Source: Candidatus Omnitrophota bacterium
GTDB taxonomy: Bacteria > Omnitrophota > Gorgyraeia > B26-G9
Assembly (NCBI GenBank): GCA_018817165.1
Contig: JAHITY010000061.1
Span: 1,733 to 65,732, forward strand
Reading direction: 5' to 3'
DNA length: 64,000 nucleotides
The translations under genes were made by a program, and so were the position numbers. Positions within the stretch are counted from its first letter, which is position 1. Every line of letters begins with the position of its first letter. Shown in pieces: positions 20,545-22,721 of the stretch. Below the pieces are notes generated by a model that saw nothing but the letters and a program-made list of their open reading frames with translations, had not been told where the DNA came from and ran no database searches.

Positions 20545-21288
20545 ATGGATGTTATAGGCATAATACCAGCAAGATATGGGTCAACCCGTCTCCCGGCTAA
20601 AGCATTAGCTGATATTTTAGGTAAACCAATGATCCAGCATATCTATGAGCGAGCCAAACAAGCTTCCATCTTGGATGATGTTATTGTCGCTACAGATGAT
20701 ACGAGAATTAAGGCTGCTGTAGAAAAATTTAGCGGCAAGGTTGTCTTAACCTCCAAAGAACATTCTTCCGGAACAGAACGTTTAACCGAAGTAGTCTTTG
20801 ATCTTGATGTCAAAATAGTTGTCAATATCCAAGGAGATGAACCTCTAATCGAACCTTCGATGATTAATGATGTTGCTTATGCTTTACTTGAAAATGAAAA
20901 TCTAGTAATGTCCACGCTTAAACACCCTATAACAAATCAAGAAGATTACATGAATCCTAATATTGTTAAGGTGGTCACAAACAAAGATAATTTCGCTCTT
21001 TATTTTTCCCGTTCCCCAATCCCAAATATTTTGCGTAAAAATAGCGCCATCCCTAATTATCTATATAAACACTTGGGCATCTATGCCTACACTAAAGATT
21101 TTCTCCTAACGTTTAAGGGCTTAAAAATATCTAAACTTGAAGAGGCTGAATCACTCGAACAATTACGAGCCTTAGAGCATGGATATCCAATCAAGGTTAT
21201 TGAAACAAAACATAACTCTGTAGGGGTAGACACAGAAGAAGATCTACAAAGAGTAATAGAAATTCTTAAATCAAAGACAAACTTTTAA
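20545..21288 (+). CDS. kdsB: 3-deoxy-manno-octulosonate cytidylyltransferase
   Basis: IIPARYGSTRLPAKAL N-terminus. 247 aa. Confidence 0.85.
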   Translation: MDVIGIIPARYGSTRLPAKALADILGKPMIQHIYERAKQASILDDVIVATDDTRIKAAVEKFSGKVVLTSKEHSSGTERLTEVVFDLDVKIVVNIQGDEPLIEPSMINDVAYALLENENLVMSTLKHPITNQEDYMNPNIVKVVTNKDNFALYFSRSPIPNILRKNSAIPNYLYKHLGIYAYTKDFLLTFKGLKISKLEEAESLEQLRALEHGYPIKVIETKHNSVGVDTEEDLQRVIEILKSKTNF

Positions 21289-22721
21289 ATAGATCTTTCA
21301 TTCCATTCAGATTTCATTCTGTTTATAATAGATAATGCCCTTGATTTGTCTTTTTCTGAAACATAAATAGAATATCCCGAAGCAATTGTTCTGATCGGCA
21401 CGCCCCAATTAAAATGCGATGGATTGACTTCTGCCATAATCCCATGACTGCGTAAACACGCTTTTTCTACATCTGCATGAACCTCGTCCTGAGCGATACT
21501 TAAAAATTGCCAGTTTATATCAGGAAATTTATGAATTTTTCTAAAAAACTTTATTTGATCATTCATATCATAATACAATCCTACTAAAACAATCAGCCCA
21601 AACGCGCCAAACATCCCTGAACTTAAAAAAGAAATTTTAAGGCTAGAAGGTAGAATTATCGGAAGATAATACATAACCATAAATAAGATCATACTCAAAA
21701 AAATGCAGTGAAGCATCGCTTGATTTAAATTGTCTTCTATTATTTTTTTCTGGTTCTTATGGGCTTTACATTTTCTGGCCAAAAGAACTTCATAAAAATG
21801 TCTAGGCTGATAAATAATTTTCGCGTACAATAAACTAATCGCAGCGCATGTTAATAAAACAGTGAGAAACGAAAAAATATTTAAAGAAATCTCAAAAAAA
21901 GACAGTATGTACTCTGTAATAATCAGCGGCCACACTCCGATCCACAATGGCCTAATTCTGATAAAAAACTTTTCCTCATCCGCTGAGCAAAACTCAATCT
22001 TACGATTAAACAAAGTAACATATCTCGTCAAATATACAAAAATCAAACAAACAAAACTAAATAGCAAAAGTTGGGTTAAGTCGATAAGATTCCTTCCATA
22101 AAAGACTGAAACCTGGTCTAAGGCAAAAACAAATCTGAGCAATATCTCTGAAGCAAAAATCACAGCAACTCCATTGCCCAGACCAAATCTATTTATAAAC
22201 TCTGAGGCTATTATAAGGATTATACTGCCCCCAATAACAGCTAAAATTGTAGTTAAATGAAATATAAATCCTTCAAAACTAATTATATTAAAGCTGGGAA
22301 AACTGTTTAATAATTCAATATCAAGCGCTATAAAATACGCATGAAACGCGCTTATCAATATAGCCGCGATTAAAGTAAAAATCGCCATCATATGCGAAGT
22401 CCCCTTAACTGAAAAAAACTTTCTATTTCCGCCAGGCACTAAAAACCCAATTACTTGGACAAGTAAGCATGCGTGAATGAATGGCATTATCCCCAAAGAG
22501 AATATTGAAAGATTTCTTAACTTACCAAAATGGAGTAATCCCATTAAATCAAAGAAACTGCCCCCCTGGGCAAGAATATGCTTATGATAAAAATCACTTA
22601 ATGCTACCATTCTTACACCAGGAACAGGGATAAAATAAATCAATCGCACGAAAATAACTGTTAAAAAACTAATCATCATTCTTTTTAAAATAACATATTT
22701 GCTGGATTGTTTATTAAACAT
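21285..22721 (-). CDS. divergent SecY-like protein-conducting channel subunit with a ~70-aa C-terminal DUF2007-like extension
   Basis: Collinear with SecY:
- FIPVPGV near the N-terminus.
- SIFSLGIMPF, corresponding to SIFALGIMPYI.
- FINRFGLGNGVAVIFASEIL, corresponding to ITERGIGNGISLIIFAGI.
- IRIRPLWIGVWPLIITEYIL, corresponding to PLKVNPAGVIPIIFA.
- FGAFGLIVLVGLYYD, corresponding to GGTSLLIVVGVALD.

A cytoplasmic tail follows: AQDEVHADVEKACLRSHGIMAEV...SIYVSEKDKSRALSII. This is not in a ribosomal-protein operon. Confidence 0.55.
   Translation of the reverse strand: MFNKQSSKYVILKRMMISFLTVIFVRLIYFIPVPGVRMVALSDFYHKHILAQGGSFFDLMGLLHFGKLRNLSIFSLGIMPFIHACLLVQVIGFLVPGGNRKFFSVKGTSHMMAIFTLIAAILISAFHAYFIALDIELLNSFPSFNIISFEGFIFHLTTILAVIGGSIILIIASEFINRFGLGNGVAVIFASEILLRFVFALDQVSVFYGRNLIDLTQLLLFSFVCLIFVYLTRYVTLFNRKIEFCSADEEKFFIRIRPLWIGVWPLIITEYILSFFEISLNIFSFLTVLLTCAAISLLYAKIIYQPRHFYEVLLARKCKAHKNQKKIIEDNLNQAMLHCIFLSMILFMVMYYLPIILPSSLKISFLSSGMFGAFGLIVLVGLYYDMNDQIKFFRKIHKFPDINWQFLSIAQDEVHADVEKACLRSHGIMAEVNPSHFNWGVPIRTIASGYSIYVSEKDKSRALSIINRMKSEWNERSI

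Follow-up and report, generated by a model that had tools for sequence, protein, structure and literature searches.

The minus-strand gene at positions 21285–22721 of the window (the whole 64-kb stretch analyzed here, 64,000 nucleotides of contig JAHITY010000061.1 of a Candidatus Omnitrophota bacterium) encodes a SecY homologue that carries an additional, DUF2007-like domain at its C-terminus. We read its product, with a probability of roughly 70%, as an accessory, specialized translocon, and refer to its relatives as the "SecY-DUF2007" family. Few bacterial proteins are as conserved and as rarely duplicated as SecY, and the only well-studied second SecY that we know of in bacteria is SecY2, which always occurs with its own SecA2 and Asp machinery. 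The paralogue described here would assemble with SecE into a second protein-conducting channel, which would handle a restricted set of substrates beside the housekeeping SecYEG and would be engaged or gated from the cytoplasm via the DUF2007 domain rather than through the standard docking of SecA or the ribosome. An earlier note on this DNA had suggested a second, specialized translocon or a regulated SecY variant, and the evidence supports that suggestion; the check concerning DUF2007, at the level of the family consensus, and that concerning the housekeeping SecY both came out in its favor, one of them only indirectly.

SecY Fold and Class Assignment

The open reading frame (ORF) was confirmed at these coordinates, with an ATG start and 478 codons followed by a stop, and its product has the same sequence as NCBI MBU1043739.1, annotated as "hypothetical protein" (KJ915_04990) of a Candidatus Omnitrophica metagenome-assembled genome (MAG). 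That this 478-residue protein is a homologue of SecY is secure. The Pfam SecY profile PF00344 matches residues 72–386 with 75.2 bits (cutoff 32.2, E = 7e-21) and is covered from position 1 to 305 of its 306 positions, and 28 of 28 close relatives match it as well. A sequence search finds the SecY chains of the Protein Data Bank (PDB) at E values of about 1e-14, mostly through the N-terminal half. The AlphaFold2 (AF2) model, built from 28 family sequences, has a predicted local distance difference test score (pLDDT) of 79.6 and a predicted template-modeling score (pTM) of 0.80, and can be aligned with solved structures of bacterial SecY along about 420 columns, the TM-score in Foldseek reaching up to 0.74. 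The same search returns 56 PDB matches at E ≤ 0.001; the 50 matches listed are without exception SecY/Sec61 chains or Sec61-containing complexes. In the model, ten long helices, a plug helix at residues 56–64, and the β-hairpin of the C4 loop at residues 240–256 are found together with a separate βαββα unit at residues 404–476. The ORF, the Pfam match, and the predicted fold thus confirm the SecY-like membrane protein of this length that the earlier note had recognized.

The curated SecY equivalog model TIGR00967 scores the window protein at 74.8 bits, below its cutoff of 253.6, and the tail-bearing family as a whole at 74–238 bits, while canonical SecY controls reach 385 and 426 bits, in agreement with the previous remark that the sequence is far more divergent than housekeeping SecY. 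On the SecY2 models TIGR02920 and NF009082, the scores are 32.1 and 37.3 bits against cutoffs of 249.6 and 353, respectively, and the canonical controls, with 156–178 bits, do better than the window protein. NCBIfam holds no model specific to the tail-bearing SecY family. Judged by these profile scores, the window protein is neither a housekeeping SecY nor a SecY2.

A Family Almost Confined to Omnitrophota

The protein had been called an orphan, a description that does not hold, since 31 close and about 50 distant clusters of relatives were found. The close tier, obtained in a search of 5.8 billion proteins, consists of the 31 clusters with 45–82% identity and 467–1044 bits, after which there is a gap to matches of 112 bits or less. 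Its members have 469–485 amino acids (aa), with the exception of one truncated entry of 400 aa, and all that are named come from Omnitrophota, apart from one "PVC group bacterium". In this tier, 69 alignment columns are invariant, including the loop PSHFxWGxP of the tail. A distant tier of about 50 more clusters (22–40% identity, 459–624 aa) emerged when 1.84 billion representatives were searched exhaustively with HMMER; these clusters align through the tail and have in common the C-terminal domain DEIEAxIK...EPLRFxWGMPIRT...YRIYVP. When the broad alignment was used for a word-indexed profile search, canonical SecYs dominated the result, and no more than two distant members came up. The tail pattern alone detects 18 loci in 185,579 species genomes and 26 loci in Joint Genome Institute (JGI) metagenomes, the genome loci belonging nearly all to Omnitrophota MAGs and in a few cases to entries auto-labeled as Planctomycetia, "Deltaproteobacteria", or "bacterium".

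In many members of the distant tier, such as P0127, P0130, and P0135, about 50 aa containing a further hydrophobic helix are added at the N-terminus, which in these proteins would then lie outside the cell.

In a neighbor-joining (NJ) tree calculated from the core only, with the tail excluded, the tail-bearing proteins form one clade in 200 of 200 bootstraps, distinct from canonical SecY. The close and mid tiers together make up a derived, long-branched subclade (182 of 200 bootstraps), and the canonical group nearest to the whole clade is Omnitrophota SecY. On the strength of these comparisons, the tail-bearing SecYs appear to be a monophyletic family that occurs almost only in Omnitrophota and that arose by duplication of SecY, in all likelihood of the phylum's own housekeeping copy. 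Full-text literature searches turned up nothing on a SecY-DUF2007 family, on natural fusions of SecY and SecE in such a context, or on a DUF2007 function, and we are apparently dealing with a hitherto undescribed accessory SecY family with a new architecture and an altered coupling surface.

The locus of the close tier is strictly syntenic, with the order DUF362-PNP-coiled-coil protein-fliW-csrA...SecY-like, the last gene being convergent with kdsB-pyrE-S11 peptidase, and this arrangement is kept down to a member with 40% identity. The small ORF found upstream in the window travels with csrA and not with the SecY-like gene.

Retained Pore and Remodeled Docking Elements

For the comparison of individual residues, the E. 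coli SecY reference sequence was verified to be 100% identical to PDB 5abb_A, and positions were mapped on an L-INS-i alignment that combined canonical SecYs with sequences of the distant, intermediate, and close tiers. At the positions of the pore ring (E. coli I82, I86, I187, I191, I278, and I408), the window protein has I, I, V, F, I, and V, respectively. The plug segment and the GxGNG motif are also retained. Invariant residues of the close tier at or near the plug are H64, G66, and R69, and transmembrane (TM) helix 2b contains a family-specific conserved cysteine, Cys85, at the position of E. coli S89. The three motifs quoted by the earlier note are all present, FIPVPGV at residues 30–36, GLGNGVAVIFASEIL at 180–194, and FGAFGLIVLVGLYYD at 371–385; the second of them, however, had been taken for the plug/TM7 region, and the alignment places it in TM5, which carries pore-ring positions. 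Glu192 of TM5 is invariant in the close tier, as are W260, W264, and P265 of TM7, where E270 is nearly so and the motif reads WxGVWP. The window protein thus has in common with housekeeping SecY (TIGR00967; E. coli, 5abb; T. thermophilus SecYE, 5aww) the ten-TM fold, the pore ring, the plug, GxGNG, and the C4 hairpin, and for the tail-bearing family a partnership with SecE is implied as well.

The cytoplasmic side is where the window protein, which is 20–26% identical to housekeeping SecY, departs from it. The C4 hairpin (loop 6/7) is 8–9 residues shorter than in canonical SecY. Loop 8/9 (C5) of SecY is a major contact of both SecA and the ribosome, and its motif GGFxPGIRPG contains E. coli R357, an arginine critical for SecA-driven translocation. 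The longer form of this motif, KKxGGF(I/V)PGIRPG, is found in 8 of 8 canonical sequences, including four named Omnitrophota SecYs, and in no tail-bearing member aligned; the corresponding position is occupied by ARKCKAHKNQKK in the window protein and by KYGYSL in the distant tier. The remodeled C5 region has invariant residues of its own, i.e., Y304, P306, Y310, E311, and C318. TM10 is followed by a basic juxtamembrane segment, FFRKIH, and the basic C-terminal (C6) tail of canonical SecY is replaced by the new domain. According to the alignment, all three cytoplasmic elements that dock SecA or the ribosome in canonical SecY, namely C4, C5, and the C-terminal tail, are remodeled in the tail-bearing family.

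The C-Terminal DUF2007-like Domain

The tail extends the SecY core by about 80 aa and is conserved across the family. The consensus sequences of the tail hidden Markov models (HMMs) match DUF2007 (PF09413) along its full profile. That of the distant tier reaches 33.4 bits (E = 5e-8) and that of the whole family 30.3; the close-tier consensus, with 22.8 bits, stays below the gathering threshold of 25.7. Weak DUF2007 matches are seen in 10 of 28 close members. In its predicted βαββα layout and its length, the tail corresponds to DUF2007 (a small PII-like domain, PDB 2hfv), and the whole-family and distant-tier consensus sequences lie above the threshold, whereas the individual tails remain below it and have their own invariant loop, PxxFxWGxP, which is exposed. 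We read the tail as a divergent α/β sandwich of the DUF2007 type with a length of about 70 aa. Pfam labels DUF2007 a "putative signal transducing protein", and we know of no function established for it.

A separate AF2 model of the tail has a pLDDT of 79. Its best structural matches are ring-building domains of the type III secretion system (T3SS), i.e., PrgK (residues 19–92, 4w4m), EscJ, and MxiJ, with TMt 0.88, a root-mean-square deviation of 1.8 Å, and 26% identity over 68 columns. These domains are periplasmic, whereas the tail is assigned to the cytoplasm, no sequence-profile relationship links the two, and the Foldseek E value is only 0.017; the resemblance to PrgK is probably one of generic fold. 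In the same fold search, 2hfv ranks alongside the PII-like PstA and ACT domains, and a search of PDB sequences with the tail profile gave nothing meaningful. The cytoplasmic location of the tail is given by the SecE fusion described below, because the conserved SecE segment starts on that side of the membrane.

The tail motif was recovered only on genes of the SecY family, either intact or degraded. Two tail-only matches, L027 (about 540–1000) and L028 (about 9960–10200), were considered as stand-alone tail proteins and rejected, because both are degraded copies in which a stop codon or frameshift splits a short N-terminal remnant from a well-conserved tail.

Fusions, Neighbors, and Selection

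The relatives of the window protein include natural fusions to other Sec components. P0156 is a SecY-tail-SecE fusion, in which the SecE part exceeds the cutoffs of both Pfam SecE (36.3 vs 22.7) and TIGR00964 (33.4 vs 27.55), and P0151 has the same layout with a sub-threshold SecE score. These two proteins represent the least diverged, basal branch of the family. A third protein (L059, 9272–11419, 715 aa) has at its N-terminus a signal anchor and a SecD/F P1-head subdomain (46.7 bits vs a cutoff of 27); one further TM helix leads on to the SecY core and the tail, and this topology is coherent. P0126 has repeated zinc ribbons at its N-terminus, with sub-threshold scores. One copy of the family (L019) is directly preceded by a signal peptidase I gene (Peptidase_S26, 159 bits) and has a gene with an SseB_C domain on its downstream side. 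The fusions to Sec components, and the signal peptidase I neighbor as well, argue for a real translocon function.

The gene is under purifying selection. The ratio of nonsynonymous to synonymous substitution rates (dN/dS), taken over unsaturated pairs, is 0.14–0.18, compared to 0.10–0.14 for the adjacent kdsB.

The conserved neighbors in the close tier are housekeeping genes. Clustering of the neighbors of the non-syntenic copies, at 11 and then 35 loci, yields only generic response regulators, ATP-binding cassette (ABC) ATPases, and tetratricopeptide repeat (TPR) proteins, and at none of these loci does a further SecY-like gene or the canonical secY lie within 10 kb. Since the neighbors are either housekeeping genes or non-recurring, a dedicated motor encoded in an operon with the channel is absent at these loci, unlike the situation for SecY2, and the motor, or a factor for co- or post-translational delivery, would then have to be encoded elsewhere in the genome.

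Canonical SecY in Omnitrophota

Omnitrophota also have a canonical SecY. A search with P0035, the canonical SecY nearest to the tail-bearing family, gives 120 top clusters of about 448 aa with 72–87% identity, many of them named Candidatus Omnitrophota SecY. A ...rplO-secY-adk-map-infA... operon holds the gene in CP070780.1, a complete genome of 1.43 Mb, as well as in several metagenomic populations, and a preprint on Omnitrophota genomes reports SecYEG, SecA, SecB, and SecD. The tail-bearing gene, in contrast, lies outside rplO-secY-adk, evolves fast, and is limited almost to one phylum. One canonical protein, P0474, is present together with the window contig in two datasets, ENA ERZ27247128 and run SRR6514274. 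The MAG JBDRPX01, assembly GCA_043826565.1, contains two tail-bearing copies, i.e., the syntenic orthologue L016 (P0030) on JBDRPX010000012.1 and the distant-tier L019 (P0138) on JBDRPX010000015.1.

In CP070780.1 (L029, 14379–17347), a giant gene (over 5,352 aa, with HEAT repeats) starts immediately after rplQ and adjoins the end of the S10-spc-alpha ribosomal operon that holds the canonical secY.

Points Against and Alternative Explanations

A number of observations weigh against an accessory translocon with a DUF2007 domain. As regards the domain, the DUF2007-like tail proposed by the earlier note stands for the family consensus but not for the window protein itself, which obtains 14.3 bits (E = 0.046) with PF09413 and stays under the gathering threshold; furthermore, the tail resembles the solved DUF2007 structure 2hfv only weakly in its fold (TM about 0.5, rank 32), and the T3SS ring-building domains match better. 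As regards the origin, the NJ tree may suffer from long-branch attraction, a concern that is lessened because the shared tail, the loss of the C5 loop motif, and the shortening of C4 are independent synapomorphies. As regards the function, the orthologues are only 40–51% identical, compared to 73–79% for KdsB (CsrA, in the same comparison, is 75–81% identical), and this fast evolution, about 2.3 times that of kdsB, could mean a changed, non-translocating function, as could the conserved acidic residues E192 and E270 inside TM5 and TM7. No recurring partner or motor was found beside the non-syntenic copies at the 11 and 35 loci, which makes the mechanism of engagement given above an inference of ours. 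Finally, as regards the copy number, the canonical secY was not found in the window's own MAG, where the accession ranges did not match, P0474 is placed by NCBI in another bin on which composition does not decide, and the two copies of JBDRPX01 rest on MAG binning, with which composition is compatible without being discriminating.

Several of these points would be accommodated by a neofunctionalized protein that has kept the SecY fold but does not translocate polypeptides, acting instead as a membrane-anchored sensor or signal transducer (with a PII-like DUF2007 domain), as a channel for small molecules or ions, or as a regulator that titrates translocon subunits such as SecE. The two docking loops that are otherwise universal are missing, charges are conserved in TM5 and TM7, evolution is fast, no motor or partner is encoded nearby, and the Pfam label of DUF2007 points to signal transduction. 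The conservation of the hydrophobic pore ring, the plug, and the lateral-gate helices, however, speaks for a channel for polypeptides, and the fusions to SecE and the SecD P1 head as well as the signal peptidase I neighbor are hard to explain without polypeptide transport. We regard a non-translocating function as unlikely.

A more far-reaching proposal, which we hold to be distinctly doubtful, is that the family serves a private export route of Omnitrophota, in which the DUF2007 domain would replace the C4 and C5 loops as the receptor of a non-canonical motor. The best candidates for such a motor would be the divergent SecA-like DEAD/preprotein-binding modules in giant surface proteins, and the giant proteins, or predation-related cargo, might in this manner drive their own export without competing with the housekeeping SecYEG. 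Divergent SecA-like modules have been described in giant proteins of Omnitrophota (West-Roberts et al., bioRxiv 10.1101/2023.11.21.568195). They resemble the tail-bearing family in that a core Sec component exists in the same phylum in a second version, which evolves fast and is without the parts of the canonical SecA-SecY interaction, and differ in being SecA domains and not SecY.

It is very unlikely that the gene is instead the sole housekeeping SecY of its lineage, moved out of the ribosomal operon and diverged. The absence of a canonical secY from the 64-kb window and from every flank that was fetched would fit such a relocation, as would the fact that a canonical copy in the same MAG is not demonstrated, and one database record does call a family member "preprotein translocase subunit SecY". 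On the other hand, canonical SecY is more than 72% conserved across Omnitrophota and sits in rplO-secY-adk, one such protein occurs in the datasets of the window contig, and the MAG with a syntenic orthologue contains another SecY-family gene. The question raised by the earlier note, whether this is the only SecY of the genome, is thus answered favorably at the level of the phylum and of the two-copy MAG, but not for the MAG of the window. The loss of the PGIRPG/R357 motif from C5, the TIGR00967 score far below its cutoff, the rarity of the signature among species genomes, and the elevated rate relative to kdsB are also difficult to reconcile with a housekeeping role.

A channel of the SecA2/SecY2 type with its partners encoded elsewhere is even harder to defend, and we consider it extremely improbable. 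Like SecY2 of streptococci and staphylococci, which works with SecA2 and Asp1-5, the tail-bearing protein is a divergent SecY that occurs in addition to the housekeeping copy, is encoded away from the ribosomal operon, and presumably has special substrates, and it gives weak matches to the SecY2 models (37 and 32 bits). These scores, however, do not approach the cutoffs of 353 and 249.6 and are surpassed by canonical controls, no genes for SecA2, Asp1-5, or glycosyltransferases were found at the loci examined, SecY2 lacks the extra cytoplasmic domain, and the family, whose origin within or near Omnitrophota is independent, has the SecY of this phylum as its neighbor in the tree. A decaying duplicate on its way to a functionless pseudogene, for which the high divergence and the degraded copies L027 and L028 might be quoted, can practically be dismissed in view of the intact ORFs of 476–485 aa in about 31 clusters, the dN/dS values, the 69 invariant residues, and the synteny.

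Gene Features and Genomic Context

The coordinates of the gene and of its structural elements are collected in Table 1.

Table 1. Features of the tail-bearing SecY gene in the window (residue numbers refer to the 478-aa product)
Feature	Residues	Positions	Strand	Basis or remark
Coding sequence of the tail-bearing SecY paralogue	1–478	21285..22721	-	478 aa plus stop; = MBU1043739.1
SecY core: ten TM helices, plug helix, C4 β-hairpin	1–397	21531..22721	-	AF2, Foldseek, Pfam 72–386
Plug helix (TM2a), FFDLMGLLH	56–64	22530..22556	-	AF2 and alignment
TM2b/lateral gate	72–94	22440..22508	-	Ile at both pore-ring positions (E. coli I82, I86)
TM5, with GLGNG	180–209	22095..22184	-	E. coli I187/I191 positions = V/F
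C4 (loop 6/7) β-hairpin	238–258	21948..22010	-	AF2 and alignment
TM7, WIGVWPLIITEYIL	260–273	21903..21944	-	Pore-ring position (E. coli I278) = Ile
Remodeled C5 (loop 8/9), YQPRHFYEVLLARKCKAHKNQKKI	304–327	21741..21812	-	Replaces canonical NP..A.NLKK.GGFxPGIRPG
TM10	371–397	21531..21611	-	Pore-ring position (E. coli I408) = Val
C-terminal cytoplasmic DUF2007-like domain, βαββα	398–478	21288..21530	-	Alignment, AF2, profile
Signature loop PSHFNWGVP	434–442	21396..21422	-	Pattern [EK]P[LSY][RH][FY][TSI]WG[MLV]P
Convergent stop-codon overlap with kdsB, 4 nt		21285..21288	.	kdsB = 20545–21288, + strand

As the earlier note had observed, the gene is convergent with kdsB (here followed by pyrE), lies outside the ribosomal rplO-secY-adk cluster, and looks monocistronic. 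An overlap of the stop codons of the SecY-like gene and kdsB, of 4–8 nt, is also present in L003, L004, and L006, and leaves no room for a terminator between the two genes. Scans for promoters and terminators gave signals at chance level, and hence we make no claim on the transcription unit. The content of the 64-kb window is otherwise housekeeping and regulatory, and no gene for another Sec component, SecA2, YidC, the signal recognition particle (SRP), or Asp was found in it, which agrees with the absence of SecA2/Asp partners noted before.

The single chains with the order SecY-DUF2007-like-SecE are encoded at 1–1812 of L031 (P0156, 583 aa) and at 6288–7958 of L009 (P0151, 556 aa).

Upstream of fliW-csrA, the window encodes a 769-aa coiled-coil protein without a Pfam match (24034–26343, minus strand), whose position is kept in related genomes at an identity of only 25–40%; fliW-csrA are present, yet the window contains no flagellin gene. 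Farther along, a c-di-GMP-I riboswitch (41042–41130, minus strand, 70 bits) is located upstream of two prepilin-type (N_methyl) pseudopilin genes (36898–40749, minus strand), which are followed by three ORFs of 204, 157, and 551 aa without Pfam matches, and three PilZ-domain genes lie near this locus at 45594–49416. An [FeFe]-hydrogenase cluster (56086–63331, minus strand) comprises HydA-like, NuoF-like, and 2Fe-2S subunits, one thioredoxin-like 2Fe-2S subunit being fused to a response-regulator receiver domain, and is followed by a Cache-HAMP histidine kinase and a Rex-like regulator. A cdaA-ybbR-glmM operon (31259–33823, minus strand), i.e., a c-di-AMP synthase module, adjoins folP and ftsH.

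Implications

The family described here, which spans a phylum, keeps the pore of SecY, discards the cytoplasmic loops for SecA and the ribosome, and gains a new cytoplasmic domain. If it is a working channel, it would show that a Sec channel can be coupled to its driver by other means, and the uncharacterized DUF2007 would gain a concrete context. The natural SecY-DUF2007-SecE single chains could be suited to structural work. For the Omnitrophota themselves, the family may be related to the secretion demands of ultra-small, possibly predatory cells with giant surface proteins.

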